From a virus: a DNA stretch of 42,730 nucleotides. The notes under the pieces are model-generated. The model worked only from the letters and a program-made list of their open reading frames with translations. It was not told the origin of the DNA and searched no databases. The DNA lies in IMG/VR virus record IMGVR_UViG_3300036846_000608, positions 1-42,730 of that record. One strand, given 5' to 3'. The position numbers and the translations under genes were made by a program. Below are positions 24,652 to 39,698 of this stretch, one piece after another (within the stretch, counting starts at the first letter, position 1; the number at the start of each line of letters is the position of its first letter).

Positions 24652-26319
24652 TCACACGTTGACGCCGAGAACCTCGTAGGTCGCAGCAATCGCAATCAGT
24701 TCGACGTTTGGTTTCCCCTGCTGCGCCACCGTCACCTGCACGACCGGCGCATGCGAATAACCGGTTAAGCCAATCGAGACCCAGCCGGTGCTGCGCACCG
24801 GAGGCATCGAGGCGTAGGGCTGGTCCCATTTCGCCACATCCCATAATCCCTGATCCCAGACATCCGCCGGCCCCGGATCGGGACCGGCCATCGGTGGCGG
24901 CGGCAGCGTCACCAGATAATCGGTAACCGCCGATAGCTGCGGCTGGAACGGGTCTCGATTGGAGGCCGCAAACGAAGCCCGCGCCTGGTGCCAGACCACG
25001 GTCTGCGGCGGCGCCTGGAACATCTCCCAGCCGCCGACCAGCACCGCGGTGTAGGGCATGCCATCGTCATAGCCGGTGCGATCGGCCTGCATCACGATGC
25101 CGTCCTGGTTGCCGAAGAACATGTCGGCGCGCATGCGGATGAAACAGGTAGCGTCGTAACCGACGAAGCGCGCCCAGGCGCCGGTCGCGGTATTGATGCC
25201 GGCACAGTAACGGTTGCCGGGCGCGCCTCCCGGCCAGGTGACGAAGATGCCGCCGTACTCGTCCCACCGCTTCATGGTCCACGACCAGGAACGCTTGGCG
25301 GCGACCTCGTCGCGCCACATCGGCTTGATCGGTGTCGTCAGCAAGCTGAGATCGAGTTGCTCGCTTTCCTTGGTAATCGCCGCCGACATCGGCGTGATGC
25401 CGTCGACGGTGGCAATCAAGAGATCGCCACCGATGCTGAGATGGGCATTCATGCCCATCGGCGCACCGATGCCGTAGCGCCCCTCCTGGCGCCAGTTCGC
25501 GGCGTTGGAGGGATCGGTGCCGGTAAAGATCAGCAGTTCGCCCTGATCGGTGCCGAACACGCATTTTTCGTCGATGCCATCACCGGCATCGAGCGACCAG
25601 GTCGCACCCCATAACAATTTGCCGCCCTTGGTCGCGGCGCCTGACAGCGGCACCAATTCAAGCTGACCCTGAATGGCGTTGAGTGGCAGGTACCATGCAT
25701 TCATGGTATCGCCCTCGAGGAAGAAGTAGCGGTTGCGATACTTCCAGACATAAGTAAGGTTCTGGCCGGTGGCACAGGATGGCGGCGGCGTTATCGCGGG
25801 GTCGGTAGTGATCTGGCTCGCGTTCAGCGTGGTCCAGGTTGAGCCGTCGAAGCGCAGTGGATAGTCGCCGGCATCGTTGACCACCATCAAATAGTCGCCG
25901 GAAGCGTTCGCCAGTTGCGAGGCGCAGTAATTGCCCGACAATTGCCCCGACTTCACCAGCACCGGGGTAACAGCACTGACATCGAATAGCTTGGTGTCCT
26001 GTCCGGCAAACATTTTTTGCACGTTGGCGCTGACATACTCGAACGCCGAGATCACCGGCTTGCGCAAGGTCGAGGGCACCGGCGGCACCGGAGTGTCAAG
26101 CGCATGCAGATCGCAGTAGCGGATGCAGCCGCCGCGCAACTGCACGCCGCGCAGCGTAGGTATCCAGTTGTCGCAGATGATGGCTCCGCCCGGCTTCATG
26201 TAGGCGAAGTTCTCATTCAGAATAATGCCGCGGGTCGGCGCCGGCAGCGTGATCGCCCGCAGTTGCTGCGCCGCCTGTTGCGGCACCGCCTGGCGACGAA
26301 AGGCCTGGTGCATACTCAT
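24652..26319 (-). CDS. large tail structural protein (tail-tubular-B/nozzle-like by size and position)
   Basis: 555 aa from MSMHQ (ATGA coupling). The position after an adaptor-sized gene follows a T7-like order. No motif-level proof. Confidence 0.55.
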   Translation of the reverse strand: MSMHQAFRRQAVPQQAAQQLRAITLPAPTRGIILNENFAYMKPGGAIICDNWIPTLRGVQLRGGCIRYCDLHALDTPVPPVPSTLRKPVISAFEYVSANVQKMFAGQDTKLFDVSAVTPVLVKSGQLSGNYCASQLANASGDYLMVVNDAGDYPLRFDGSTWTTLNASQITTDPAITPPPSCATGQNLTYVWKYRNRYFFLEGDTMNAWYLPLNAIQGQLELVPLSGAATKGGKLLWGATWSLDAGDGIDEKCVFGTDQGELLIFTGTDPSNAANWRQEGRYGIGAPMGMNAHLSIGGDLLIATVDGITPMSAAITKESEQLDLSLLTTPIKPMWRDEVAAKRSWSWTMKRWDEYGGIFVTWPGGAPGNRYCAGINTATGAWARFVGYDATCFIRMRADMFFGNQDGIVMQADRTGYDDGMPYTAVLVGGWEMFQAPPQTVVWHQARASFAASNRDPFQPQLSAVTDYLVTLPPPPMAGPDPGPADVWDQGLWDVAKWDQPYASMPPVRSTGWVSIGLTGYSHAPVVQVTVAQQGKPNVELIAIAATYEVLGVNV

Positions 26320-27029
26320 GGCGTCGGCACAGGCCACGGATAAGCGACACCGACAGTCGACTGTGCCGAGATCGGCGCGCGGTCGACCAGGATCGGCGAC
26401 GGCTTGTCGGCGCCCTCGGCTACTACCAGCGCATCGGCGAAGGTGCCCATGTCCTCGGCGTAGGCCGACCCCTTCGACGCCTTCCACTGCCAGATCATGC
26501 CGAGTTTCAATAGCCGCTCATCCAGCGCAAAGCTGTCGTTGTCATTCATAAAACTGTCGCCGAGGCCGCCAGCGTTCAACTTGACGCAGTTCTTGTCGAG
26601 GTAGGCAAAACTCGCGGTGATGCCGGCGCCGAGGATCGGCCAGAACAGCATCTGACCGCCGATCATGATCCACTCGCCCCAGGGCGAGAACCGGTTCAAC
26701 ATCCTCCGCTGCATCCACTCGTCGGTGTCGGAGATGAACCGCATCGGATGAATGGCCGAGGTCGAGCGCCAGACATTTGATGTCTTCAGCATCCGCTTGT
26801 AATTGGCCGGCAGGCTGAAGGCCTGGGTGGTGCCGTCGCCGGTGAATATCTGGGTCTTCTGCAACAGCGTCCACTCTCTGGTGTCGTAGGCGATGCGCTG
26901 CGCCATCTCGTTGGCGAGCGAGGCCATCTCCTGCATGGTGCGGTTGCCTGTGAGGTTTGAGAACACCGAGGTCGGCACCGGGGTGCCGACGCCGGCGCAG
27001 ACATCCTTCACCACCGACAGCAGCGTCAT
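26316..27029 (-). CDS. tail adaptor / tubular-A-like structural protein (by position)
   Basis: 237 aa with ATGA coupling on both sides. Confidence 0.5.
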   Translation of the reverse strand: MTLLSVVKDVCAGVGTPVPTSVFSNLTGNRTMQEMASLANEMAQRIAYDTREWTLLQKTQIFTGDGTTQAFSLPANYKRMLKTSNVWRSTSAIHPMRFISDTDEWMQRRMLNRFSPWGEWIMIGGQMLFWPILGAGITASFAYLDKNCVKLNAGGLGDSFMNDNDSFALDERLLKLGMIWQWKASKGSAYAEDMGTFADALVVAEGADKPSPILVDRAPISAQSTVGVAYPWPVPTP

Positions 27030-27794: not shown

Positions 27795-28817
27795 TTAGGC
27801 CGCAGGATTGCTGTCGTAGAAGCGCCAGTTGAACAGCGGATTGGTCATGGTCAGTTCGCCCATCCAGCCGATGAATTGCGCGATAGCGTCTTTGTCTATC
27901 GGCATCATTCCCTCCCCATCGAACACTTTGTCGAAGTTGCGGTTGGGGTGATAGCGCAGCCGCAGGCTGTCGGTGTTAATCCCCATCGTGGTGTTGGACG
28001 GCATGTTGGAGCCGATGCCGCCATCGAGCACGATCTCGGCGCGCTTGCCGCCGCCGATATACTCCAGCGCCGTGAACCCGAGTTGACCCAGCGAGGTCTC
28101 GTTGGTCTGGCGCTGGATCGCGACGGTGGCGGCGTCGTAGGCCGAGTAGTGTTCCGGCGACATGATCAGGAGATCGGCATATTGCTTGCCCCTGCTCTGC
28201 TTGATCATGATCTGGTTGAGGTAGGGCCGGATGGTGGTCGCGGTGACCTGGGTGCCGATGGTTGGGAACGCCGAATTGGCATCGTAGGTCTGGGTGCGCC
28301 AGATCACGGCGGTGCCGCGGTCGATGCCGCCGTAGACGCCGGAAGTATTGACGATTGGTATCGCGGTGGCGAGCCCGGTGATCTGTTTTCCGCCGTTGGC
28401 GGTGCCGTCGGAGTACAGGCCGGCATCCATGGTGTCTTCAAGGGCGCGTTCGGCAGCGTCGATGTAGCTGTCGTAGACGTCCATCAATTGGGCTTCGCCC
28501 TCGTTGTTGAGAATTTCCTGCATCGACAGGATCACCGGCACCACGACCATCTTGGGGTCGAAGTACGCATCGTTGAACAGATCGAGCGCGGGGTTGAGCA
28601 GTTGGTCGTAGCCGGAATACCACTGCGCGACCTGTTTGCTGATCTGAAGCGTCTGGCGGATGCGGGGACCGCTATAGGTATGCCACAGTCCCTTGCGGCG
28701 CATCACCGCAAGCAGTGCGTTGTTGTTGGAGACGAGGTCTTGGTAGCCCTTGGACCGGTCTTCCAGCGCCAACGAAAGTATCTGCTGATAAGCAGCATTA
28801 GTATTGATGTTTGGCAT
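27795..28817 (-). CDS. major capsid protein (HK97-fold expected)
   Basis: 340 aa with a strong SD (gggagagg). Immediately downstream of the scaffold-like gene and followed by a hairpin. Composition is typical of coat proteins. Confidence 0.7.
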   Translation of the reverse strand: MPNINTNAAYQQILSLALEDRSKGYQDLVSNNNALLAVMRRKGLWHTYSGPRIRQTLQISKQVAQWYSGYDQLLNPALDLFNDAYFDPKMVVVPVILSMQEILNNEGEAQLMDVYDSYIDAAERALEDTMDAGLYSDGTANGGKQITGLATAIPIVNTSGVYGGIDRGTAVIWRTQTYDANSAFPTIGTQVTATTIRPYLNQIMIKQSRGKQYADLLIMSPEHYSAYDAATVAIQRQTNETSLGQLGFTALEYIGGGKRAEIVLDGGIGSNMPSNTTMGINTDSLRLRYHPNRNFDKVFDGEGMMPIDKDAIAQFIGWMGELTMTNPLFNWRFYDSNPAA

Positions 28818-28845: not shown

Positions 28846-30093
28846 TCAGAGGCCTCCATTGACGCGCCGGATGGCGCTCTGGATGGCCTCGCGTCGACCG
28901 ACAGGCTTCTCGGATCGCGACGTCCCGTTTGAGGGGCTGTCGGGGGCTCCGTGAATGCTTTTGTCGGCAGGTCGGGTCTGAGCCGATGGGGTGCGGGTCT
29001 GAGCCGCGTGGGTGGTGCTGCGGGTCTGAGCCGCGTGGGTGCCGGGCCGGAGTAACTCCGCCCGGCGATAGGCGGTGTCGAGATCGAACCCGCGTTTGAG
29101 TTCGTCCTCGATGATGTCGCCTAATTCATCGAACCTCGGATGCGTGGCGGCGTACTGGTCGACCGCGCTCCTGGTGTAAGTGAACTGCTGCGCAGTATGC
29201 ATCTGATGCAGGTGCTGCTGCAAGCCCGCTATCTGCTGATGCAGCGCGCCAATCTGGTGGCTTTGCGCGCCCTGGGCGTTGGCGGTCTGCATGGTCCTGA
29301 GTTGCTCCGGCGACTGGCTCAGGACGTGATAGGCGATGTCGCGAAAGGTAAGTTTCTGCCCGTTGGGGGAGCGCAGATTGAGATTGTTGACGATGACGTC
29401 GAGGCCGCCGACCGGGTCTTGTCTTAGCCGCTGCTCCATCGAGACGTAGTTGGTCAGCGCCTTTTGCAGCGTGGTGCCGTGCTGGGTCGCCATGTCGTGA
29501 AACTGGCGGATCGAGTTCATGGTCTCATGGTCACCGCGATAATAGCGATGGGCGGCGTCGAACTCCTGCGCCATGCGGTAGACTTCGCCGCGCACACTCT
29601 CGGGCGCGGCATGCCATTCCGCCTTGGCGTGATCAGCCATCCGCGGCGGCGGCGCGCGGTAGGGTGTGCCCTCCGGCAATTGCTTGTGCGGCGCTCGCTG
29701 GCCTTGTGGTACCCGCTGCTGGTCCGGTTGGGGGTTCTGCTGCCGCGGCGCGAACTGACCGCGATCACCGCGCGGCTGCTCGGCGGGCCGCTTCTTGAGA
29801 TCGAGTTTTTCGGTCGGCTCAGGCGGATTGTTGTGACCAGGTTTGGCGTCGGCGACCGGCGCCGGCTTCTCGGCGTGCCGCTCCGGCTTCGGCGGCGGAT
29901 TAGAGGCGCGCTCATAGGCCTTCTGGATCGCCTCGCGGCGGCTCTCGGCGCGATGCTCCGATCCCTTGAAATCGGGACCGACCGGCTTACTGGGTGCCTG
30001 CTGGCCGACCGGGGTCGGGCTGGCGACGGGTTCTGGATTGATCGCAACTTCGCTGGCGCCGCCCGCTGGAGGGGCAACGGTGGTGTCGGTCAT
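28846..30093 (-). CDS. scaffolding protein candidate
   Basis: 415 aa from MTDTT (SD aggagatcgat). Pro/Gln-rich and helical, directly upstream of the capsid gene. Contains THAAQTR repeats and two RREAIQ motifs. Confidence 0.55.
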   Translation of the reverse strand: MTDTTVAPPAGGASEVAINPEPVASPTPVGQQAPSKPVGPDFKGSEHRAESRREAIQKAYERASNPPPKPERHAEKPAPVADAKPGHNNPPEPTEKLDLKKRPAEQPRGDRGQFAPRQQNPQPDQQRVPQGQRAPHKQLPEGTPYRAPPPRMADHAKAEWHAAPESVRGEVYRMAQEFDAAHRYYRGDHETMNSIRQFHDMATQHGTTLQKALTNYVSMEQRLRQDPVGGLDVIVNNLNLRSPNGQKLTFRDIAYHVLSQSPEQLRTMQTANAQGAQSHQIGALHQQIAGLQQHLHQMHTAQQFTYTRSAVDQYAATHPRFDELGDIIEDELKRGFDLDTAYRRAELLRPGTHAAQTRSTTHAAQTRTPSAQTRPADKSIHGAPDSPSNGTSRSEKPVGRREAIQSAIRRVNGGL

Positions 30094-30106
30094 ATCGATC
30101 TCCTGG

Positions 30107-30271
30107 TTAGCCGCGGACCTTGCGGATCGCTTTCTTGATGCTGTCGCGGCGCTGATCGGCGCGGTTGAACTCGCGCGCCACGGTCTGGCTGATGCCAACC
30201 TTTTTCGCGAAGACGGCGTCGTGCGCCGCCGCCGCCATGAAGCGTTTCTGCTTGGGTGATTTACTTGGCAC
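30107..30271 (-). CDS. DUF3008-like small protein (GTG start)
   Basis: PSKSPKQKRFMAAAAHDAVFAKKVGISQTVAREF resembles the DUF3008 SKAQQRFM.. pattern. The upstream part of the track ORF looks non-coding. Confidence 0.5.
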   Translation of the reverse strand: MPSKSPKQKRFMAAAAHDAVFAKKVGISQTVAREFNRADQRRDSIKKAIRKVRG

Positions 30272-30452
30272 GGTGTCCTGCCCGATATTTTTCGATTGCG
30301 CTTCTGATCGATTGCCGGCGCGATTGTTTTGACGGTCTTGCCAGGGCCGCAAGATGGTAAGACGTTTCCAGACCAAGCCCCGCCTGGACCAACACTTCGA
30401 TAACCCCACCAAGTTCATCAAACCGGGGGTGCGCCTTGGCGAACCGATCCAC
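30261..30452 (-). CDS. mini-paralog of the scaffold C-terminal region (GTG start; alternatively the +1 continuation of 30469..30780)
   Basis: FAKAHPRFDELGGVIEVLVQAGLGLETSYHLAALARP..RRQSIRSAIEKY parallels scaffold YAATHPRFDELGDIIEDELKRGFDLDTAYRRAELLRP..RREAIQSAIRRV. Confidence 0.5.
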   Translation of the reverse strand: MDRFAKAHPRFDELGGVIEVLVQAGLGLETSYHLAALARPSKQSRRQSIRSAIEKYRAGHRAK

Positions 30453-30468
30453 GTCCGCTCGTATCTGT

Positions 30469-30780
30469 TTAAACCCTGCGCCCCGCCCTGAACTCGGAGA
30501 TGGTTTTGCCAATCGTCTCCCGACGCTTTCTTTTGAATTGCGGGTCATCGGTCGTTCGCGTCTTTGGCTTGAACTTTTCATTGCCAACCTCAGTAAGACC
30601 GAGCGCGCGACCGACGGCACGGAACGCGCGCTTCGATGTGTAGAAGACGCCGTCGACCTGCTCGGTCGGTGGCATGATGTCAGAGATCACATAGGGCAGC
30701 GGCAGATCGGAGCGCGCCGGTTTGAGTTTAGGTCTATGGACGCGCCACTTGTTCGGCTCGACCTCGACCAATCGGATCAC
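30469..30780 (-). CDS. hypothetical 103-aa protein ending in an RRETIGKTISEF motif (GTG start)
   Basis: GTGA coupling with the upstream 56-aa ORF. Confidence 0.6.
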   Translation of the reverse strand: MIRLVEVEPNKWRVHRPKLKPARSDLPLPYVISDIMPPTEQVDGVFYTSKRAFRAVGRALGLTEVGNEKFKPKTRTTDDPQFKRKRRETIGKTISEFRAGRRV

Positions 30781-30947
30781 AATGGCGGTCCCACAAAGAC
30801 CACGGGGATGCCGCCCGTGGTCACCTGGGTCACTGCCACGCCCTTGCCGTTGGCGGCCTCCGTAACCGGCAGGCCGATCTTCAGCGTCCCCGTCACGTTA
30901 ATCACGGGCATGCCGCCCGAAGCCACGGTCACCACAGGCATGCCCAT
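30777..30947 (-). CDS. 56-aa protein with G(G)(M/I/L)PV repeats (below ORF-track cutoff)
   Basis: MGMPVVTVASGGMPVINVTGTLKIGLPVTEAANGKGVAVTQVTTGGIPVVFVGPPL. Starts 2 nt after the upstream stop, and its stop overlaps the next start. Confidence 0.55.
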   Translation of the reverse strand: MGMPVVTVASGGMPVINVTGTLKIGLPVTEAANGKGVAVTQVTTGGIPVVFVGPPL

Positions 30948-30949
30948 GG

Positions 30950-31156
30950 TTATTTGTGCTTCCTGGTTTCGTGCTCGCCCTTGTCGTGCTCGGCGGGCTT
31001 CTTCGGCTCCTCCTGCTTCGGCTCCGGCCTGACATTGCTGCCCGGCGGCTCGTTGATGCTCGGCGGAGTGTTGGTGTCGATGCTGGGCGGGGTGCTGGTA
31101 TCGACGGGCTTGTCGTCGTCGGCCTTGGGATGATCGCTCTTGGGATTGTTGCTCAT
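30950..31156 (-). CDS. 68-aa Pro/Lys/Asp/Glu-rich disordered protein
   Basis: MSNNPKS start in an ATGA overlap with the upstream stop. Confidence 0.6.
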   Translation of the reverse strand: MSNNPKSDHPKADDDKPVDTSTPPSIDTNTPPSINEPPGSNVRPEPKQEEPKKPAEHDKGEHETRKHK

Positions 31157-31899
31157 GTGAATGTCCATGTTTGCGGGGCGGTGGTAACGGCTCCTCCGGT
31201 GATGACGGTGACGGGCCAGGTGCCCGCCGAGGCTTTCTTGTTGACGGTCGCTGTCAGCGAGGTCGCGGAAACGAAGGTGGTGACCTGCGCCACGCCGTTG
31301 ACGTAGATCACCGACTGCTTGGTGAAGTTGGTGCCGGTGCAGGTCAGCGCCTGGGTGCCGGCGCCCGACACCGTCGAGGTCGGCGAGATCGAGGCCAGCG
31401 CCGGATTGGTCGCCGGCGACAATGACGAGGGGTGGGTCTGGTTCGGCACGGGCATCGTGCCTGCTGTCAGCGCCGGGCCGCAGCCAACGGTCTGCAACTG
31501 ACCGAACGGGCTCGGGTTGGGCACACTGGCGGTCGCCAGGGTCTCGGTGCCGGCGCCCTCATGCGCAACACTTGATGAGGCCGGCGTAGCGCCGACATTG
31601 TTGACATTGGCATAAGCACTGCCGCCGCCAGGATAAGTGTTCTCGGTGCCGCCGGCGGTCGCGCCCGATCCCGACGCCAGTGCCGCCACGTTGGCGGCGA
31701 ACACCAGGCCCGATGCGGCAGTGCCCTTATCGAAATACGGTGGCGGGAAGTCTTTCGGGTTAACCGAACTCCAGTTCTTGGGGTCGTTCATGGTGTTCTT
31801 GGTGAAGTTTGGCGGGTTGGGGCCGGTTACCCCGGTGAAGGCGAAATTGGTCGGCGGCGTCGGGTTGGGCGGGGTGACGGTGACGGCACTTTGAGCCAT
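31153..31899 (-). CDS. virion-surface protein candidate with a C-terminal Ig-like (IPT/TIG-like) domain
   Basis: C-terminus: ISPTSTVSGAGTQALTCTGTNFTKQSVIYVNGVAQVTTFVSATSLTATV...WPVTVITGG. SD ggagaaagtaca. Confidence 0.75.
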   Translation of the reverse strand: MAQSAVTVTPPNPTPPTNFAFTGVTGPNPPNFTKNTMNDPKNWSSVNPKDFPPPYFDKGTAASGLVFAANVAALASGSGATAGGTENTYPGGGSAYANVNNVGATPASSSVAHEGAGTETLATASVPNPSPFGQLQTVGCGPALTAGTMPVPNQTHPSSLSPATNPALASISPTSTVSGAGTQALTCTGTNFTKQSVIYVNGVAQVTTFVSATSLTATVNKKASAGTWPVTVITGGAVTTAPQTWTFT

Positions 31900-31945
31900 T
31901 GTACTTTCTCCTCGGGGTTGTTAAATTCGTAGTTTGTAAGAGGAT

Positions 31946-31951
31946 TATAAT
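31946..31951 (+). promoter_or_regulatory. perfect TATAAT hexamer just upstream of the opposite-strand gene
   Basis: Read directly. No well-spaced -35 element was found, and it overlaps the SD spacer of the TTG start. Confidence 0.25.
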
Positions 31952-31952
31952 C

Positions 31953-32246
31953 TTGAGCACCAAGGCCCATCACATCGAAATCGACGACGGCGACCCCAAT
32001 GAGGTTTTCGTCCACGTCACGATCAACGCCGAGGACAACAGCGTCATCGACATCATCGAGATGTATCTGATCGAGAGACGCGAGAGCGCCTACGCCATGG
32101 CACATCGGCTTGCGAAAGCACTCGACTTGCCGCTGACCCTGATCGATGGCTACGGCAGCGAGCCAAAATCCGTTACTGTCGGGCAAGATCGCCCATCCGG
32201 TTTGCCTCCTGCCACCGCGAAAGCCGCTCAACCCACTGAGGCGTAG
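31953..32246 (+). CDS. acidic 97-aa protein encoded antisense to the late operon (TTG start)
   Basis: TTG preceded by aagagga at 8 nt. Strong GC3 bias in the plus frame through the 273-nt gap between the minus-strand genes. The 3' end overlaps the convergent gene by 74 nt. Confidence 0.6.
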   Translation: MSTKAHHIEIDDGDPNEVFVHVTINAEDNSVIDIIEMYLIERRESAYAMAHRLAKALDLPLTLIDGYGSEPKSVTVGQDRPSGLPPATAKAAQPTEA

Positions 32247-33561
32247 CCTTCTGCAGCATCGGCACGTCGCCGCCGGCCTTCATGAACATGGACAGGTGTG
32301 CGGCGTTCCGCGCCTCGGGCGACAGCAATCTCATATCCGGTCGCGCTGCCAGATGGGCCGCCGTGAGGTCGGGAAACATCACATCGACGGGAACGTGGCC
32401 AAACTGCCCCTGATAATCGCCGCCCATGACCGAACGGTAGGTACGATGTCGCGGCAGGAAATCCTCATTCACACGCTCGCCGGTCAGGCGAGACACTGAA
32501 CCCCCGGAAGCCGCTAACGGCACGTCGACCAGCCCAGGATCGGTCGCCGCGAAGCGAGCCTGATCAACCCGTGGGAAACCAGCATCACGGTATTCAGCCT
32601 TGTCCATTTCCTTGGCCAGTTTGACGCGCAGGCCGCCCGGCGCGCTCGCCAGATAATCCTGGGCGCGGTGCGACAGGATGCCTGGCCAGTTCGGATCGGT
32701 CTCGCGCATGACAGCGTCAAACCTGGCAAGCCCGCTATCGGTGATCGGCGCGTGCTGTGCCATGCTGACGAGCGTGTCGGAGACATGGTGCGAAAAATCA
32801 ATCGAGCGTTCGCCCATCGCCGAGTAAACGCCGTAGACCGGTGCGTCAGCTTCCTGGGCACGGTTCAACAGCCGCGTGACGGCAGGTTTCTCCGAAGCCC
32901 ACGCTGCACCCTTGCCAGCCATCTCCAGTGGATAATCCCGACCACCCTGCAGCCATGTCGGCATCTCGAACCGCTGTCCGCCGATGCCGAGAATGTCGCC
33001 CATGGCCGCGGCACGGTCGCCCGCGAGCGGCAACAGGTACGATCCCTCAACCGCAGCCGCAGGCAATTCTGGTCGCTGCACGTTGCGCAGCCGCATCGCG
33101 TATTCGGTGTCATGCACTGGTGAGGTGTGGCCTATCTTCGAAAACGGGCTCGAAAACAGTCTCGCCTTCCCGGCCTGCGCCTCGTCGGGATCAAGTGCGG
33201 CGCCAGCAGCGAGTGCAGCCATTCGCACTGGAATATTGCCGCCGCCGGTTGCAATGGTCAAACCAACGTCGAGCGGCGACGTCGGAATTAACTTGGCACC
33301 AACATCGGCGGCGACTGTGCCCGCCGTGCGCTGCGGCGGATCGGCGCGCCAGGCCGAGAACGGCACTAGCGGGTCCGGTTTTTCCTGCGGTGCCGGCGCC
33401 CTGGCATTGGGGTCAGGCCACATCGTGCCTTGCGGCTCGTAATGTAGTTGCTGCGCCAGCGTACCCATCGCCCATGGCGGCAGACCCTGGGTCGGGTCCG
33501 GCTGTTCTGCCAGTCCGCCCATCGGCAGGCCGCTCATCGGATCGTAGTAAGTGTCGCTCAT
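32173..33561 (-). CDS. 462-aa protein of unknown function, coupled to the upstream ART-like gene
   Basis: ATGA coupling. Long ORF with coding bias. Confidence 0.85.
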   Translation of the reverse strand: MSDTYYDPMSGLPMGGLAEQPDPTQGLPPWAMGTLAQQLHYEPQGTMWPDPNARAPAPQEKPDPLVPFSAWRADPPQRTAGTVAADVGAKLIPTSPLDVGLTIATGGGNIPVRMAALAAGAALDPDEAQAGKARLFSSPFSKIGHTSPVHDTEYAMRLRNVQRPELPAAAVEGSYLLPLAGDRAAAMGDILGIGGQRFEMPTWLQGGRDYPLEMAGKGAAWASEKPAVTRLLNRAQEADAPVYGVYSAMGERSIDFSHHVSDTLVSMAQHAPITDSGLARFDAVMRETDPNWPGILSHRAQDYLASAPGGLRVKLAKEMDKAEYRDAGFPRVDQARFAATDPGLVDVPLAASGGSVSRLTGERVNEDFLPRHRTYRSVMGGDYQGQFGHVPVDVMFPDLTAAHLAARPDMRLLSPEARNAAHLSMFMKAGGDVPMLQKATPQWVERLSRWQEANRMGDLARQ

Positions 33562-34487
33562 GGCGACACCTGATCTTGCGGCTGATACTGATCCTGCGCC
33601 GCCAGCGCACCCAAGGTGCCGGTAGGGGCGCCGACCACGCCGTATTTTTTCATGATGTCGACCATGCTGATCGGACTGTTGGGATCGAACACCACGTAGT
33701 TGTGGGTGGGTGGTGGATAGGATGACGAAAGCACGTCACCACTGGGCGATGTGGTAAGCGCCGGTCTGGCATTGCGGCTGCCTTCATCGAGATAGCGGAT
33801 GCCGGGAACGCCGGCCTCACGCAGCATGTTGCTCGATGCCTCTGCATTTTGCGTGAGACCGCCGATCCCCGAATAAAGCCTGCCGCCAGGCGATGTCGGC
33901 GCAATGCCCATGCGTTCAGCGATGATGTCGGGGTCTCCGATTTTGGCATCCCAGTGCGCCCGCAGCGCGTCATAGGCTTTTTGCTGCGCAATCGGCTTGT
34001 CCCAATCCAGAAACTGCGACGGGTCGGCATTGATGTTGACCTCGTACATCCGACCGGCGGGCTTCAACGGAACGCCGCTCTGGTATTGCTCGATGCCTTT
34101 GACGACATTCTGGATGCCTGGAATGTTGGCTTCGACGTTCCACGGTTGTACCGTGTTCGGATCGGCCACCTGCCTGCGCATCTCGTCGAGCCGCCCGCGA
34201 AAATCTTTCAGCAGTTCTTCCGGGTTGTATCCGGCCTCCAGCGAGTTGCCGACCCAGTATGGCAGTCGCTCACCGGTTTCGAGATAACGGTCCTTGAGGT
34301 CCGACAGTCGGTTGCGATAGCCCCTCGCGACGTCCTCGTTGCCGGCAAAATACAGTCCGTGGCCGTAGGCTTGCGCGCCCTCGCCGGTACCAATCTTGCC
34401 GATGTCAAAACGCTCGAAATCGTGCGGGCTACCGTGATAGGCACGGATGCCGGTGATCGTCCGCGCGATGGCATCGCGCCAACTCAT
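33558..34487 (-). CDS. polyvalent-protein-type domain protein, possible ADP-ribosyltransferase (H-Y-E class)
   Basis: N-terminus: AYHGSPHDFERFDIGKIGTGEGAQAYGHGLYFAGNEDVARGY. C-terminus: GVPGIRYLDEGSR...NYVVFDPN. From memory it resembles ART-PolyVal-like domains of phage polyvalent proteins. Not verified. Confidence 0.8.
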   Translation of the reverse strand: MSWRDAIARTITGIRAYHGSPHDFERFDIGKIGTGEGAQAYGHGLYFAGNEDVARGYRNRLSDLKDRYLETGERLPYWVGNSLEAGYNPEELLKDFRGRLDEMRRQVADPNTVQPWNVEANIPGIQNVVKGIEQYQSGVPLKPAGRMYEVNINADPSQFLDWDKPIAQQKAYDALRAHWDAKIGDPDIIAERMGIAPTSPGGRLYSGIGGLTQNAEASSNMLREAGVPGIRYLDEGSRNARPALTTSPSGDVLSSSYPPPTHNYVVFDPNSPISMVDIMKKYGVVGAPTGTLGALAAQDQYQPQDQVSP

Positions 34488-34750
34488 TGTCCGACCCCGC
34501 GACGGTAAGCGTTCAGCACCAGCGCACGGTCGAGATCAAATGCGCCAAGGTCGTTCGCCAGCCGCGTGACCGGCGGGATCGTTGCCCCGAGGCCGCCCTG
34601 CATCTGATAACCCAGTAGCTGCCGGCCCAGTTGCGGGACATCTGCGCGCATGATCGGCGGATCGTTGCGGCGGTCCTCGATCGGCGCCCGCCGCATCTGT
34701 TCCCAGTCCATTAGTTGCGCGGTGATGCGGTCTCTGACGTCATCGCTCAC
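34484..34750 (-). CDS. hypothetical 88-aa protein (GTG start)
   Basis: SD aagagg at 8 nt. ATGA coupling with the downstream gene. Confidence 0.65.
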   Translation of the reverse strand: MSDDVRDRITAQLMDWEQMRRAPIEDRRNDPPIMRADVPQLGRQLLGYQMQGGLGATIPPVTRLANDLGAFDLDRALVLNAYRRGVGQ

Positions 34751-34777
34751 GGATCGACCTCTTGTCGTATCATCGCA

Positions 34778-35635
34778 TCACCATCGATTGGGAATGACGA
34801 AAACACGCCGTCCAAAATTGAGTACGCCAGGCGGCACCTCAATAACGACTTGATCGGCGTGGCCGATAAAGGCGGCTCTATCACTTGCTTCGATTGCTGC
34901 CAACACGCCCGAGATCGCTCCCGCGACCGAGCCCGCAAAGGCAGCAATATCCCCTGCTTCCGTCGAGGCCCACGCCGCGGTGATCCTGACATCACCGGCG
35001 AAGCCCACAGTGTCGCCGGTCTCAACCGCGGCGAGTGTGCCGGAAATGGTCGGGAAAGTACCGGCGCCAGCGAACGCGGCAATATCCGTATTCTCTATCG
35101 CCGCGAGCGCACCTGAAACGATCAGGCTTCCGGCAAATAGAGCGCTGTCACCTATTTCAGTCGCCGCCAATGTGCCGGCAATGACGACCTGGCCAGCGAA
35201 GGCGACTACATCCTTCGCCTCGGTCGAAGCCAGCGCGCCGGAGACGACGACTTGACCGGCAAAGGCCGCGACGTCCCTGGCCTCGGTTGCGGCCAGTGCG
35301 CCGGAGGCGCCAACGGCACCGGTAAAGGCTGCGGCGTCCTTCGCCTCGGTAACAGCCAGTGCGCCGGAGACAATGACATTCCCGGCAAAGACCGCATGGT
35401 CCTGGGTCTCGGTGACAGCCAGTGCGCCGGAGACAACGACACTGCCGGCAAAGGCCGCGACATCTCTTGCTTCAGTCGTCGCTAACGCTGCACTTAGAAC
35501 AACCTGGCCAGTAAAAGCCGCACGATCCTGCGCCTCGGTGACCGCCAGTATTGCTAACTGACCATCCCAGAGCGCCTGATCCCAAAGACCGCTATCCCAA
35601 TATTGCGGTGGCGGTACGCCTCTGGGGTCTTCCAT
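34778..35635 (-). CDS. tandem-repeat protein: 11 x about 21 aa (ALAxTExxDxAAFAGxVxVSG)
   Basis: Repeats read directly from the translation. N-terminal Trp-rich QYWDSGLWDQALWDG. Confidence 0.85.
   Translation of the reverse strand: MEDPRGVPPPQYWDSGLWDQALWDGQLAILAVTEAQDRAAFTGQVVLSAALATTEARDVAAFAGSVVVSGALAVTETQDHAVFAGNVIVSGALAVTEAKDAAAFTGAVGASGALAATEARDVAAFAGQVVVSGALASTEAKDVVAFAGQVVIAGTLAATEIGDSALFAGSLIVSGALAAIENTDIAAFAGAGTFPTISGTLAAVETGDTVGFAGDVRITAAWASTEAGDIAAFAGSVAGAISGVLAAIEASDRAAFIGHADQVVIEVPPGVLNFGRRVFVIPNRW
34847..35557. repeat. coding tandem repeat array, period 63 nt, about 11 units
   Basis: ctcggt..gccagtgcgccggag recurs every 63 nt (for example 35282, 35345, 35408). Confidence 0.85.
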
Positions 35636-35646
35636 TCAAACGACAC

Positions 35647-36063
35647 CTAGCCATGCGTGATGGTTCCCGAGGTCACCGTCACGGTTTGCCCCGAAGTAAT
35701 TGAGGTCGAGGTCAGGTTAATGTCGGAACCGGAGGTGCCGACGGTCAAACCGGAAACAACGGTGGTGCCGGTATTGGTTCGCAGTTCGGCCTTGGCGGCA
35801 GTGCCGGTGGCCGAGGCCGCCACCGACAACGGCACGCCGGCCAGCGTTGCGATCACGGTGCCAGAGCCGGAGACGGTAAACGGCGCAGTAGTCAGCGCAA
35901 TAGTAGCGAGCACACCGACCGCACCGGCCAGCGAAGCAGTGCCGATCACCAATTGTCCGGCAGTCGCTGAACCGGTGGAAGCGGTAAAGGTCTTGCCCGC
36001 GACCTCGTCACTCATCAACTGCATGCGGTTGGTTTTCAGGGTGTCGTTATAGACGACGGCCAT
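35647..36063 (-). CDS. 138-aa Thr/Gly/Ala/Ser-rich beta protein downstream of the portal
   Basis: MAVVYNDTLKTNRMQL... then ..TVGTSGSDINLTSTSITSGQTVTVTSGTI. A recurrent phage family of unknown role. Confidence 0.8.
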   Translation of the reverse strand: MAVVYNDTLKTNRMQLMSDEVAGKTFTASTGSATAGQLVIGTASLAGAVGVLATIALTTAPFTVSGSGTVIATLAGVPLSVAASATGTAAKAELRTNTGTTVVSGLTVGTSGSDINLTSTSITSGQTVTVTSGTITHG

Positions 36064-36078
36064 GATGTCGTTCCCTTC

Positions 36079-38340
36079 TCATGGGATGAAGCCACCCTTC
36101 GGCATCTTGAACTGCTGGCTGGCGCGCCGGTCAGCCGCCTGTTGCGCGAACTGACTGGCCTGTTGCTGCTGCGCCCGCTCTTGCGCCTGCATCCTGGCGA
36201 TCTCCAGGGCGGTATCGACCTGGTGCTCGCGCATATCCTGATTGCTCTCCTGCTGGGTGGCCATCGCCCTGGCGTTGATCTCCTGCACCCTGGCTGAATG
36301 CTCCTGGTTGCGGCCCTGCACTTCCATCGCAGTGGAGACGCTGTCGGACTGGATTTTGGCAGCATCGGTCCTGCCCTTCTGATCGAACTGCTGGACTTTC
36401 AGTTGACGGTCGGCATTGTCGCGCTCTCTTTGATAGGCAATCTTCATCTGCTCGATCTGGATCGCGGCCTTGTTCTGCGCAGTGGCGGGGTCGTCGCCCT
36501 TGCCCTGGCCGGCCTTGCTCTCCATTATTTGCACCAGGCCGTCGATGGCGCCATCGAGGCTTCGTGAAACCCGGAACGGCGCCACCGAGAATTTCAGCAG
36601 TTCGCCGCAGAAGCCCGCGGTCTGCGGCTCGGCGGCGGCCATCTGCGCCAGTTGCGGCATCAATTGTCCGAGCATGCCGACGAACTCGGCCCTTCGTTGC
36701 TTCTCGGCATTCTCGTCGGCCTGGATGGTGCTATCAGTCTCGATGTCGAGCACAAACGACTTGGCGCGATTGTCTTTCAGAAACCTCAACACCGCTTCGA
36801 TGGTCGGCTGCTGCTGCAACTGCTGTATCTGCTGCTGCACCTGGGCCATCACCTGCTGCGCCAGTTGCGGGTTCGCTTGCGCCCGTTGCATCAATTGCGG
36901 GTTTTGCATGGCCTGCTGTGCCTGCTGCTGGATGCCAGCGATCTGCTGTTGCACCATCGCCTTCGTCGGCAGTTGGGTCTGGCTCATCTCGATGATGGTG
37001 ACGGGATTGAACTTCTCGGTGATGATCTCACTGGCTATTTCCACCAGGTCGCGCGCGATCCTGACGATCTCGGCCTGCTTGTCGCGGATACGAGAAGAAC
37101 CGTACTGGGTCTTCAACTGCTGGGCACCGAGGGTCTCCTGCGGATCGGTCGAGCCGCGCATGATGTCGGCCATGCCGGTGATCTGGTAGATGTCATCGAT
37201 CATCTTGCTCCTGAGATCGACCAGGTTCGACACCGTGGTGGCGATCATGTCGATCGGCATCCAGATGATGACTTCCTTGGTGCCGCCGAACGCCGCCCAG
37301 TTCGAGATCGGCACCATCACTCTGCCAGGAGTCTTGATCTTGATCGCGGCCTCGATCGCATCGCCGATCTCGGCACCGCCTGCGGGATAGAAACCCTTGA
37401 CCTCCAGCGCATCACTGAGCGCGTGGATTCTCGAGGTCAGCATATTGACCTCTTCCAACTGGTCCTTGTACTGCAGCACGTCGGGCACCGGCACCAGCGA
37501 GCCGCGCTGGCAGGTGCCGTAGGCCGGCTTTGGGCATGGAAAGAAATTCTGCAAGTCCAGGTGCGGATCGTCCTCGTCGAGGATCAGATCGCAGCCCTTG
37601 GCGACCCAGGCCACGCGACGGTCGGTCTTGCTCCAGATTTCCCAGAACTTGGCGCGCTCGCGTCGATCGGCGCCGCCGATCTCCTTGCTTTCCTTGTCGA
37701 CGCGATACTCGGCCTTCTGATATTCATCGCCGCTGGTTTTGCGGAAGCGTTGCCGCGCCTCGGATCGCGTCAGGTAAGAGGCGGCGGCAACCCAGGTCAC
37801 CTCGTACCAGCACCTGGAAATCGAATGCAGAAAATCCCTGCGGTGCTTGAAGTCGATGCAGACCCGTTCGCTGTCGTAGTAATTGTCATCACTACCGCTG
37901 TCATAGCGGCACCAGGCGACACCTCTACCGATCAGCGAGAGGTCGTCGCGGATCAGCATCATGATGTCGTCGATGCGGGCGAGATCGAATGAAACCACCG
38001 CGCAGCGCTCCATCACTTCGGAGGCCGCCTGGTAGATCGGTCGGCGATCCTTGAACTTCGGCACCACCACCGGGATCGGCGGGCGAGCATAGATCGAAGG
38101 CTTGATCACCTCGCAATTGGCCCAGAAAATCTGAAACTCCTTGTCGCGCGACAAGGTGGACAGGCGTTCCAGCGAGGCGAATTGCTTATCGATCTTGTCG
38201 CAGTGGTCGTGCCATTTCTCGAAGGCGTCTTCACTCTCCTGCAACAGGTTGAGCCAGGCCCTGGCCTTCTTCGGTTCGATGGTCGGATTGTATTCCTGGT
38301 CGTCGGTGCGGAGGTCTTCGTTAACCGGCGCGTCGTTCAC
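36079..38340 (-). CDS. portal protein
   Basis: 753 aa. GTGA-coupled directly to TerL. Long Q-rich helical C-terminal region. Assigned on position and size only. Confidence 0.75.
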   Translation of the reverse strand: MNDAPVNEDLRTDDQEYNPTIEPKKARAWLNLLQESEDAFEKWHDHCDKIDKQFASLERLSTLSRDKEFQIFWANCEVIKPSIYARPPIPVVVPKFKDRRPIYQAASEVMERCAVVSFDLARIDDIMMLIRDDLSLIGRGVAWCRYDSGSDDNYYDSERVCIDFKHRRDFLHSISRCWYEVTWVAAASYLTRSEARQRFRKTSGDEYQKAEYRVDKESKEIGGADRRERAKFWEIWSKTDRRVAWVAKGCDLILDEDDPHLDLQNFFPCPKPAYGTCQRGSLVPVPDVLQYKDQLEEVNMLTSRIHALSDALEVKGFYPAGGAEIGDAIEAAIKIKTPGRVMVPISNWAAFGGTKEVIIWMPIDMIATTVSNLVDLRSKMIDDIYQITGMADIMRGSTDPQETLGAQQLKTQYGSSRIRDKQAEIVRIARDLVEIASEIITEKFNPVTIIEMSQTQLPTKAMVQQQIAGIQQQAQQAMQNPQLMQRAQANPQLAQQVMAQVQQQIQQLQQQPTIEAVLRFLKDNRAKSFVLDIETDSTIQADENAEKQRRAEFVGMLGQLMPQLAQMAAAEPQTAGFCGELLKFSVAPFRVSRSLDGAIDGLVQIMESKAGQGKGDDPATAQNKAAIQIEQMKIAYQRERDNADRQLKVQQFDQKGRTDAAKIQSDSVSTAMEVQGRNQEHSARVQEINARAMATQQESNQDMREHQVDTALEIARMQAQERAQQQQASQFAQQAADRRASQQFKMPKGGFIP

Positions 38341-39698
38341 AGCACAATCCCTCGTCGTGGTTCAGCCGGCGGCGGAATGATGATGCCTTGCGGTCTGACA
38401 ACCGGTTTGACTTCGCGGAGCGAGGCCTGCTTGCGGGCCAGAGCGAGGTAGCGAAACGCATCTGCGGGATGCGAGGTCCAGTCGTGGACCGCGTTCGCCC
38501 GGAACGCCTTCTTGTCGTCGTCCCACTCTCTCCGATATTGTTCGAGTGCGGCGATGCCGTCCTCGCATCTGGGATCGAACACGCACAGCGGCAACAATCG
38601 CCTCGCCGCGTTGATGCCGTCCTGCATGGTGGCTGAAGGTACCAGCATCGGATGCAGGCCGAGTTCGACCATGGTCTCGACCCTGGTCTTGCCTGATCCA
38701 AATTCCCTGATTTTGGCATCGTGAGGGACGTAGTCGTTGCCGCGCTTCCAGCCGTATTTCAATTCCCGGGCTTCGATCTCGGCGAGGTAGTAGTCGAGCC
38801 CGACACCGGACTGCGCGAGATGATCGAGGATGAACACTTGCGCGCCAACTCTCTGGAACCACCAGATCGAGGTGTCGTCCTTGACGCCCAAATCCCAGGC
38901 GCGATGCACCAGTTGATCCCCCAGTGCCGTGATCTCTGTGATGCGCTGCTCATTTCTGACCTGCGCCATTTCCAGCGAGTAAAATGAACCGAGGATGGCG
39001 GCGTTGAACGAGCAGAGATATTCCTGCTCGAACTGGGCACGGCCCACGTCATCACCGAACAGGGCTGTATATTCCGCCAGCGCCTGGTCGAGTTGCAGAT
39101 CACTCAGCGCCCCGGTGTCGCGCGCGGTCAGCAGTTCGCAGAACCAATTTTGAGCTCTGACGGCGTGGTCGTACATCGCCTTGGCGTGGTTGTGACCACG
39201 TGGAGTAGTGATGAAGGCGGCCCAGCCGTTGTTCTCCTGCAGAATAGGTCTGTGGTAGCCCCAGGCACTGGGGTTACTGAGCGCCCATTCGGAGTAGGTG
39301 ATGCCGGCGACCCCTGAGCCCAGGGTGGCGTCGTAGCGGTCCGAGCCCACCACCTGCCAGGTCGAGCCGTTGACAAAGCGGATGAACATCTCGTTGTCGT
39401 TGACGTTCTCGCGCATCGCTTCGGGGAAGGCCTCGTCGATCCTTCGCCTGCCGGTGTGGGAGTTGACCGCGTTCCAGATTGCCTTTCGGCCCTGGTTGTA
39501 TTCCGGCAGGCAGGTCCAGTAGTTGCCGGGGCGCTTGATGGCTGAGACAGCAGTGTGGTGCAGGCAGACCTCGTCCTTGCCGGCACGTCGATGCCAGACG
39601 GCAAGCGCACGATCGCCGCCGGCCTGTAAAAATTCCCACAGCCGCATCTGGTGCGGCCTGGGCATCCAGTTGTTGTGCGGCAGTGAGATGTCGGGCAA
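38337..39698 (-). CDS. terL: terminase large subunit
   Basis: ALAVWHRRAGKDEV is a Walker-A-like segment. FITTPRGHNH. Nuclease-domain pattern AWDLGVKDDTSIWWFQ ... HD. TTG start with a gagg SD; in-frame ATG at 39668. Confidence 0.9.
   Translation of the reverse strand: MPDISLPHNNWMPRPHQMRLWEFLQAGGDRALAVWHRRAGKDEVCLHHTAVSAIKRPGNYWTCLPEYNQGRKAIWNAVNSHTGRRRIDEAFPEAMRENVNDNEMFIRFVNGSTWQVVGSDRYDATLGSGVAGITYSEWALSNPSAWGYHRPILQENNGWAAFITTPRGHNHAKAMYDHAVRAQNWFCELLTARDTGALSDLQLDQALAEYTALFGDDVGRAQFEQEYLCSFNAAILGSFYSLEMAQVRNEQRITEITALGDQLVHRAWDLGVKDDTSIWWFQRVGAQVFILDHLAQSGVGLDYYLAEIEARELKYGWKRGNDYVPHDAKIREFGSGKTRVETMVELGLHPMLVPSATMQDGINAARRLLPLCVFDPRCEDGIAALEQYRREWDDDKKAFRANAVHDWTSHPADAFRYLALARKQASLREVKPVVRPQGIIIPPPAEPRRGIVL

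Follow-up and report, generated by a model that had tools for sequence, protein, structure and literature searches.

Why should four consecutive genes in the head module of a phage end on the same short peptide? The question is raised by the metagenomic contig IMGVR_UViG_3300036846_000608, which was analysed over its whole length of 42,730 bp (the window) and on which all late genes lie on the minus strand. The window is a P22-like podophage of the Mx8/Brucella-phage (Mx8/Pr) branch, which has been placed among the P22-like podoviruses (PMC10386132). By identity of the major capsid protein (MCP), the closest isolates are Rhizobium phage RHph_I3_18 (63%) and the Brucella Tb/Pr phages (39%). A putative scaffolding protein is encoded immediately upstream of the coat gene, and a 54-amino acid (54-aa) protein, a small protein designated mini and a 103-aa protein designated p103 precede it in turn. 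A preliminary description of the window had pointed out a recurrent RR(D/E/Q)xIxxxI peptide on these proteins, with a related peptide at the N-terminus of an ART-like protein, and had suggested that it docks its carriers onto coat or scaffold. All six peptides are present on the minus strand where that description placed them (Table 1). We propose that the peptide is a coat-docking handle of the scaffold that small head-module proteins carry as well, an interpretation to which we give an even chance.

Translated in six frames, the window contains the expression RR[DEQ].I...I exactly four times, in each case 5-10 residues before the stop of one of the four consecutive genes (scaffold, 54-aa protein, mini and p103). 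A second copy within the scaffold, RREAIQKAYERA, misses this strict expression by a Y in place of the second I. When the 50 predicted proteins were each shuffled 5000 times, 0.026 matches were expected overall and 0.0026 within the final 25 residues, with a maximum of 1; a similar frequency in shuffled proteins, named beforehand as grounds for discarding the motif, was therefore not found (4 observed versus 0.026 expected). An independent hidden Markov model (HMM) of the tail, 21 positions long and trained only on p103-homolog tails from other contigs, was searched against 935 six-frame segments. Its four top-ranked segments were p103 (E 8.5e-10), mini (3.4e-9), the 54-aa protein (0.0019) and the scaffold (0.12), where the match covered both the N-proximal copy and the C-terminal tail; the next-ranked segment had an E-value of 0.47. 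Codons differ between the copies in the window, so the similarity is at the protein level. A DNA-level repeat, such as a promoter or terminator, was rejected as the source of the motif on this ground and because codon identity is not elevated within genomes. In the window clade the peptide reads x-R-R-[DEQ]-[AST]-I-x-x-A-I-x-[RK]-[VYF], with hydrophobic residues recurring at i, i+3/4 and i+7. These results support the presence of a real, selected and modular terminal element that is common to the scaffold and to small head-module proteins. Neither the motif nor p103 was found reported in literature searches.

The distribution of the peptide was assessed in about 235 related loci obtained in three IMG/VR scans. 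Across these loci it is confined to the scaffold, p103 and 54-aa families, and mini is found in the window and one relative only. In 159 related loci the tag HMM matched the coding strand 253 times and the opposite strand 0 times. The matches were all in the three families or in contig-end fragments of them, apart from one weak match (E 0.16) in an unassigned open reading frame (ORF). At E<=0.01, 181 of 183 matches lay within 12 residues of the stop, which is the enrichment at the ends of head-module proteins that the preliminary description had suggested looking for in related genomes. From the window clade to the Tb-like clade the architecture is constant, in that the scaffold has both its N-proximal and its C-terminal copy and a tailed p103-like protein is encoded just upstream.

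The wording of the peptide differs among clades, and it does so in every copy. In the window clade the scaffold C-tail is RREAIxxAIxRV, the N-proximal copy RREAIQKAFER and the p103 tail RRQSLKKALERY; the corresponding peptides are SLDEALDRAFG, SLDDSIDRAIA and GIDQAVERAAA in a second clade and NREALQRAMARA, SEAVKRAM and DRKAIKESVQKA in a third group. In short form, the contrast between the first two clades is RREAI, RREAI and RRQSL versus SLDEAL, SLDDSI and GIDQAV for C-tail, N-copy and p103. Within-genome similarity was tested on 71 representatives with <60% tail identity by 10000 permutations, in which phylogenetic structure stays. The scaffold C-tail scored 25.4 against its own N-region, compared to 20.1 (standard deviation (sd) 0.56) for permuted partners, and 20.75 against its own p103 tail, compared to 17.1 (sd 0.55); the observed score was reached in 0/10000 permutations in both cases. 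Codon identity at identical residues was 37.4% within genomes and 34.7% between them. Because there is no excess of codon identity within genomes, gene conversion was rejected as the cause of the similarity. Proteins that are unrelated stay alike by undergoing the same substitutions.

These observations bear on two other explanations of the motif. The peptide could be an inert remnant of duplication or recombination, or a chance resemblance, since phage head modules are mosaic and mini arose by partial duplication of the scaffold. However, chance is excluded by the shuffling and by the independent tail HMM, the tail is strongly conserved in 120 p103 homologs and is kept from the window clade to Brucella phage Tb despite 39% MCP identity, and the proteins covary without gene conversion; we find this explanation scarcely credible. 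The peptide could also be an arginine-rich motif that binds nucleic acid, either in translational autoregulation of the head operon, as has been described for the P22 scaffold, or in contacts with DNA inside the head. Its strongly basic character in the window clade (RR...R/K...R/K) is in keeping with such a role, whereas the sister-clade peptide is neutral or acidic (SLDEALDRAFG, MRELLEDELKRL) and is kept in the same places, still covarying, and the conserved features are a hydrophobic stripe and an Ala rather than charge alone. Nucleic-acid binding is thus very improbable as the function of the peptide.

If the copies are docking elements, the coat protein is their likely receptor. Position p2 of the peptide, the second R in RR, is the residue that directly precedes [DEQ]-A-[IL], and the coat column that best predicts its charge class is residue 116. 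Of the 99 unique genomes with a basic p2, 90 have D or E at residue 116; in those with an acidic p2, this residue is K, A, S or Q and never acidic. Numerous separate coat clusters repeat this pattern, within the RHph-like as well as the Tb-like superclade. Rhizobium phage RHph_I3_18 has the tag TR-EAL and coat residue E116. Over 17 phylogenetically independent contrasts (PIC), column 116 was concordant in 8 and discordant in 0, which placed it at rank 1 of about 340 (the next column had a net score of 3), with a family-wise sign-permutation p of 0.006 for scaffold p2. In the 11 genomes with K116, p2 of p103 is never basic. The coat segment reads KPVLKSYMMAAE in the [LI]D clade and MDVYDSYIDAAE in the window clade, a local charge inversion that mirrors the one in the tags. 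A scaffold copy that covaries with an MCP residue, together with copies that covary with one another, is what a common coat-docking site predicts. The pattern points to a contact between Arg p2 of the tag and Asp/Glu116 of the coat, and physical binding of the peptide to the coat would follow from it. Other clade-defining coat differences (D87, D308/K309 and others) were set aside as inseparable from phylogeny. A simple model in which the tag and coat helix 106-121 have complementary net charges was likewise not retained, as it was weakly supported (PIC r -0.35, the best such stretch in the protein).

Residue 116 lies inside a predicted helix, residues 108-135, in the region aligned to the capsid protein of cyanophage Mic1. 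A three-sequence coat profile matched this protein (6j3q) with an E-value of 5.6e-5 as its sole match, and a single-sequence search of the PDB with the coat returned nothing useful. From its position after the E-loop strands, we take helix 108-135 to be the spine helix of the HK97 fold. The coat has more than 2500 homologs. Some near-identical ones bear the Pfam annotation SU10_MCP, and MCP homologs in Brucella phages are annotated as major head protein. The links to SU10_MCP, to SU10_adaptor through the adaptor gene, and to Mic1 6j3q could supply structural templates.

Several points weigh against docking of the peptide onto the coat. Column 116 was joint top for p103 tails (4:0) and top for N-proximal copies (5:1), yet with family-wise p values of 0.39 and 0.64, respectively, neither is significant alone. 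Net-charge complementarity between tag and coat helix fails in the Tb-like clade. The covariation was found by exploration and was derived from UPGMA (unweighted pair group method with arithmetic mean) trees and from regular-expression anchoring that mis-registers some tails. The AlphaFold2 (AF2) model of the coat, built on 51 close homologs, had a predicted local distance difference test (pLDDT) score of 33.7 and was unusable except for the long helix 108-135, which is itself taken with caution. The identity of the scaffold was assigned by synteny, and recruitment of the small proteins into procapsids is putative. The interpretation in the preliminary description is partly supported. A shared docking element is well supported, in that the copies covary and the scaffold copy covaries with coat residue 116; for the small proteins the covariation with the coat points the same way and is underpowered, and their encapsidation is hypothetical.

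The copies might instead associate with each other, or with some other region of the scaffold, in mixed helical bundles. The small proteins would then join the scaffolding core and not the coat, much as T4 capsid-targeting sequences send proteins to the core. Similar amphipathic helices can co-assemble, the two similar copies of the scaffold covary, and the covariation between small-protein tails and coat is not significant alone, all of which this arrangement would accommodate. It would not lead one to expect the specific covariation of the scaffold tail with coat residue 116. All copies shift alike (RR to [LI]D), which is easier to reconcile with mimics of one ligand than with charge-complementary partners that pair with each other. 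We regard targeting to the core as unlikely.

Docking onto the coat would operate as follows. The peptide would form an amphipathic helix of 12-16 residues with a short Gly-containing end, by which the scaffold would dock onto the inner face of the MCP during procapsid assembly. With two copies per scaffold, one N-proximal and one C-terminal, each scaffold could bridge or cross-link two coat subunits. The same peptide stands at the C-termini of small proteins encoded upstream, namely p103 throughout the lineage, the 54-aa protein in some members of the clade, and mini in the window and its nearest relative. These carriers would gain the docking specificity of the scaffold and be drawn to the same site of the shell as auxiliary scaffold-like or internal proteins.

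The role of the putative scaffold is suggested by synteny and composition. The protein had no Pfam hit and no sequence match in the PDB. Its gene starts at an ATG (30093-30091) with AGGAGA in front. In nearly all close relatives the C-tail is kept as GRREAIxxAIxRVNGxx, directly followed by the stop, and the N-proximal copy lies at an equivalent place and covaries with the C-tail. Three 7-aa repeats (T/HAAQTRx; 21-bp period) occupy positions 28973-29042, in the linker just before the C-terminal tag, and AQTR repeats are located at the matching site in the scaffolds of relatives.

The carrier found throughout the lineage is p103, which is universally syntenic with the scaffold. None of its 989 homologs has a Pfam domain or a name. 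A conserved core (PxPYVISDxMxPTEQVDGxFYTSKRAFRAVGRALGLTEVGNEK) is followed by a variable basic linker and then by the tail, RRx[SA][IL]xxA[IV]xx[YF][KR]AGxR, which in the profile of the 120 homologs is conserved as strongly as the core (R 98%, aliphatic 100%, A 94%). The AF2 model of p103 (pLDDT 85.8) has a small beta core, an extended linker at residues 60-79, a helix at residues 80-98 and 5 non-helical residues at the end, and thus predicts the peptide to be helical in this protein. A Foldseek search with the model against the PDB and BFVD gave no informative match and no known fold.

The 54-aa protein had been described as DUF3008-like; that label was dropped, as no Pfam family matched at E<=0.1, PF11450 included, and the family is phrog_16759. 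Its core, MPSKSxxQxxxMAAAAHxPxFAKKxGIxQxVAxEFxxAD, is widespread: phiKZ 165.1 and Stenotrophomonas phage BUCT555 have it, and in PBECO4 it forms the N-terminus of a 'virion structural protein'. The RRxxI tail is found on this protein only in the window clade, where some genomes have kept it and others have lost it. Because the core is widespread without the tail, the tail is a clade-specific add-on. The core either makes up a gene by itself or forms the N-terminus of larger proteins annotated as virion structural proteins in jumbo phages (phrog_22033 and phrog_25121; PBECO4 gp454 is L084 3001-3792), and this distribution suggests a virion-associated role that is independent of the tag.

The body of mini is a paralog of scaffold residues 311-350 (BLASTP, 50% identity, E 1e-12) joined to a p103-type tail, so that the carriers, called otherwise unrelated in the preliminary description, include one that is plainly related to the scaffold. 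None of the 80 closest IMG/VR loci has the mini gene; the nearest relative, L160, encodes it with a scaffold-type tail, SRREAIRRAIGRLTRT, at the extreme end. Neither mini nor p103, the 54-aa protein or the scaffold had a Pfam family. Relative to p103, the mini ORF lies in the +1 frame, and it overlaps the end of p103 (30449-30480; 1555-1585 in L160). An in-frame GTG lies 17 nucleotides past the p103 stop and is conserved in the window and L160; no clear Shine-Dalgarno sequence was seen. Because of this conserved GTG, termination-reinitiation is the simpler reading of mini translation, and a programmed +1 frameshift at AGG GTT TAA A that would join p103 to mini was set aside in its favour.

The small proteins could equally be cargo, auxiliary scaffolds or competitors. 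They may use the same docking site for another purpose, as regulators or competitors of the scaffold that leave with it and are not cargo; they would cap coat sites, tune the scaffold:coat stoichiometry or the capsid size, or help release the scaffold. In the closest solved analogue, CpmB competes with the 80alpha scaffold (PMC5644958). Mini is literally a fragment of the scaffold, and the universal synteny of p103 with the scaffold would suit a regulator too. The 54-aa core at the N-terminus of jumbo-phage proteins annotated as virion structural hints at association with the virion and thus speaks against departure with the scaffold. We think such a regulatory purpose improbable, at about one chance in five.

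A possible sixth copy concerns the ART-PolyVal protein (309 aa; 33558-34487), which matched PF18760 over residues 15-95 with 34.1 bits against a cutoff of 31.2 (E 5.7e-8). The N-terminal peptide exists as the preliminary description stated, but it was not recovered by the tail HMM (E 8.7). About 30 of 120 ART homologs begin with M-x-x-R-D-x-I-A-K-x-[IL]-x-G right before the ART core GIRAYHGSP, and the remainder have long unrelated N-extensions. Both ART genes for which contigs were inspected lie immediately after the portal gene in phages of the window lineage, and in L015 the ART peptide, WRDSIAKTISEG, is close to the p103 tail of the window, RRETIGKTISEF. By its sequence the ART N-terminus may represent the tag in an N-terminal variant, or just the N-terminal helix of the ART family. 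In its broadest form, scaffold mimicry in this lineage of soil podophages would be a general and transferable system of capsid loading, in which any protein bearing the peptide, whether C-terminal (p103, 54-aa protein, mini) or in a variant N-terminal form (ART), docks at the coat site of the scaffold and is delivered with the DNA. We consider this generalization quite doubtful. If true, it would be the phage counterpart of encapsulin cargo-loading peptides (CLPs), and the predicted contact between Arg p2 and coat Asp/Glu116 could be re-engineered.

The ART protein also carries a second recurrent terminal peptide, G-x-L-A-x-Q(-D-x-Y), which occurs in the window at 32176-32193, 33448-33465, 33502-33519 and 33585-33611 and also in L241 and L242. 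At the ART C-terminus it reads LGALAAQDQYQPQDQVSP directly before the stop. In the 462-aa protein it is found twice near the N-terminus (MGGLAEQPD and MGTLAQQLHYEP) and once at the extreme C-terminus (MGDLARQ). Many ART homologs end in KYG[IL]AG...GALAAQDxY, and in relatives the following protein has similar peptides at both ends. Such a peptide could serve as a signal (for junction, cleavage or targeting) in packaged effector proteins of the 'polyvalent' type.

The coordinates of the features are collected in Table 1. The scaffold and coat genes form part of a portal...scaffold-coat module of the P22-type layout, and this order is common to the window, RHph_I3_18 and Brucella phage Tb. A prohead protease was not seen in any of the head-module proteins that were scanned against Pfam and PHROG families.

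Table 1. Features of the head module and of the recurrent peptide in the window.
Feature	Position	Strand	Basis or remark
Terminase large subunit-like gene	38337-39698	-	position upstream of portal; phrog_2472, unknown function
Portal gene	36079-38340	-	phrog_12082, E 2e-179
Inserted genes, about 5.3 kb, between portal and p103	30777-36063	-	
ART N-terminal peptide WRDAIARTITGI	34446..34481	-	possible tag variant, unproven
p103 (103 aa)	30469-30780	-	phrog_21669
p103 C-terminal helix, residues 80-98	30487-30543	-	AF2; tag RRETIGKTISEF at 30490-30525
Mini protein, 63 aa if started at GTG 30452	30261-30452	-	BLASTP paralogy to scaffold
Mini tail SRRQSIRSAIEKYRAGHRAK, up to the stop	30285-30320 (tag core)	-	
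54-aa protein, GTG start	30107-30271	-	phrog_16759, E 6e-21
54-aa protein MPSKSPKQKRFMAAAAHDAVFAKKVGISQTVAREFNRAD and tail QRRDSIKKAIRKVRG, up to the stop	30116-30151 (tag core)	-	
Putative scaffolding protein, 415 aa	28846-30093	-	phrog_25516 'virion structural protein', head and packaging
Scaffold N-proximal copy RREAIQKAYERA	29905..29940	-	about residue 52-63 of 415
Scaffold C-terminal tag GRREAIQSAIRRVNGGL, up to the stop	28849..28899	-	core RREAIQSAIRRV at 28861-28896
Major capsid protein (MCP), 340 aa	27795-28817	-	phrog_9953 major head protein, E 5.5e-80; putative receptor
MCP D116	28470-28472	-	within LMDVYDSYIDA, 28455-28487
SU10-type adaptor (237 aa)	26316-27029	-	SU10_adaptor match, E 3.6e-7

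The block between portal and p103 holds the 285-aa repeat protein, the ART-PolyVal protein and the 462-aa protein. The same interval contains one gene in RHph_I3_18 and two or three in Tb, and its contents differ among close relatives (ART, 462-aa protein, LPD23-domain proteins, TIG-domain protein); it looks like a variable cassette of effectors or internal proteins. The 285-aa protein (34778-35635) has 21-aa tandem repeats (...VVSGALAxTEAKDVAAFAG...; 63-bp period, about 4 copies by Tandem Repeats Finder) at 35211-35469, a weak match to phrog_38872 of unknown function, and a conserved C-terminal end, FGRRVFVIPNRW up to the stop, that is common to homologs in related loci. Homologs of the 72-aa protein (30950-31168) have tails extremely rich in lysine and arginine, such as KPKKKTKKAKAKPNGKRKIKAKQKRRRR, and some homologs of the 248-aa protein (31153-31899) end in tails of the RRRTRR type, as expected of internal proteins that contact DNA.

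The peptide was compared with known systems that place proteins inside a shell. The preliminary description had likened it to encapsulin cargo-loading peptides and to the capsid-targeting sequence (CTS) of T4, and a functional likeness to both remains, while their defining features are missing here. In encapsulins, a short C-terminal peptide on a flexible linker directs a protein into an HK97-fold shell, and there is no scaffold. The peptide of the window is likewise C-terminal and tethered by a linker, and its binding to the shell is putative; RRxxIxxAI is, however, unlike the CLP consensus, a scaffold gene is present, and the carriers are small proteins, not enzymes. In T4 the CTS sits at the N-terminus, directs proteins to the scaffolding core and is cut off by the prohead protease. 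It too is a short terminal peptide common to several head-interior proteins, whereas five of the six copies here are C-terminal or internal and the scanned head-module proteins include no detectable protease. In lambda C/Nu3 and in herpesvirus UL26/UL26.5, a shared scaffold C-terminus results from in-frame nested translation of one gene. Several head-interior proteins thereby have the C-terminal coat-binding end of the scaffold, as is proposed here, but the copies of the window are separate genes with diverged sequences and different codons.

In P22 itself, we know of no other phage protein that carries a copy of the coat-binding element of the scaffold. The P22 scaffold gp8 possesses a C-terminal coat-binding domain of the helix-turn-helix type and a secondary coat-binding site (bioRxiv 10.1101/2022.12.13.520362; PMC9965877). 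Both scaffolds belong to the structural module of a P22-like podophage (PMC10386132), yet the window scaffold has no detectable homology to gp8 (Pfam, PDB), and the helix-turn-helix is a feature of P22.

The closest likeness is to the 80alpha scaffold gp46 and the SaPI1 protein CpmB, whose last 16 residues, an 11-residue amphipathic helix and a hook, bind the coat N-arm and an adjacent cleft alike (PMC5644958). This cleft adjoins the P-domain (PMC5644958), and it is established that the scaffold contacts the N-arm and the spine helix of the coat in 80alpha (PMC5644958) and in P22 (bioRxiv 10.1101/2022.12.13.520362). In both the 80alpha system and the window, the scaffold and a small protein that otherwise differs from it share a peptide of roughly 16 residues at the extreme C-terminus; in the window this peptide is predicted to be helical in the p103 model, and its scaffold copy covaries with a residue of the long coat helix. 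A helix with a short hook has its counterpart in p103 helix 80-98 and the 5 non-helical residues behind it, with tags 5-10 residues from the stop, and the shared carriers are the scaffold, p103, the 54-aa protein and mini. The systems differ in that the tails here have no RIIK motif and no sequence similarity to those of 80alpha and CpmB, that the mimics are encoded by the phage and not by a satellite, and that there are two to three carrier families and a second copy within the scaffold. The window scaffold had no PDB sequence match even though the 80alpha and CpmB entries 6B0X and 6B23 are in the PDB. Scaffold mimicry of this type is already known from 80alpha and CpmB and is met here in an unstudied lineage. 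The internal second scaffold copy, the phage-encoded mimics in up to three families and the candidate residue-level contact are not described for the analogues compared.

To our knowledge, recognition between scaffold and coat is understood at the level of residues for few phages, and we know of no structural or genetic data for the Mx8/Brucella-phage branch. This lineage, with thousands of metagenomic members, gains a candidate docking peptide, a second scaffold copy and a universal small partner protein. The candidate contact between tag Arg p2 and coat residue 116 is specific and testable, and natural charge-swapped variants of it exist. If the small proteins are competitors, the CpmB-type strategy would be one that phages also use on their own scaffolds. 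If they are loaded through the peptide, it would be a natural portable tag for the interior of the phage head, with relevance to effector delivery and to capsid nanocontainers.

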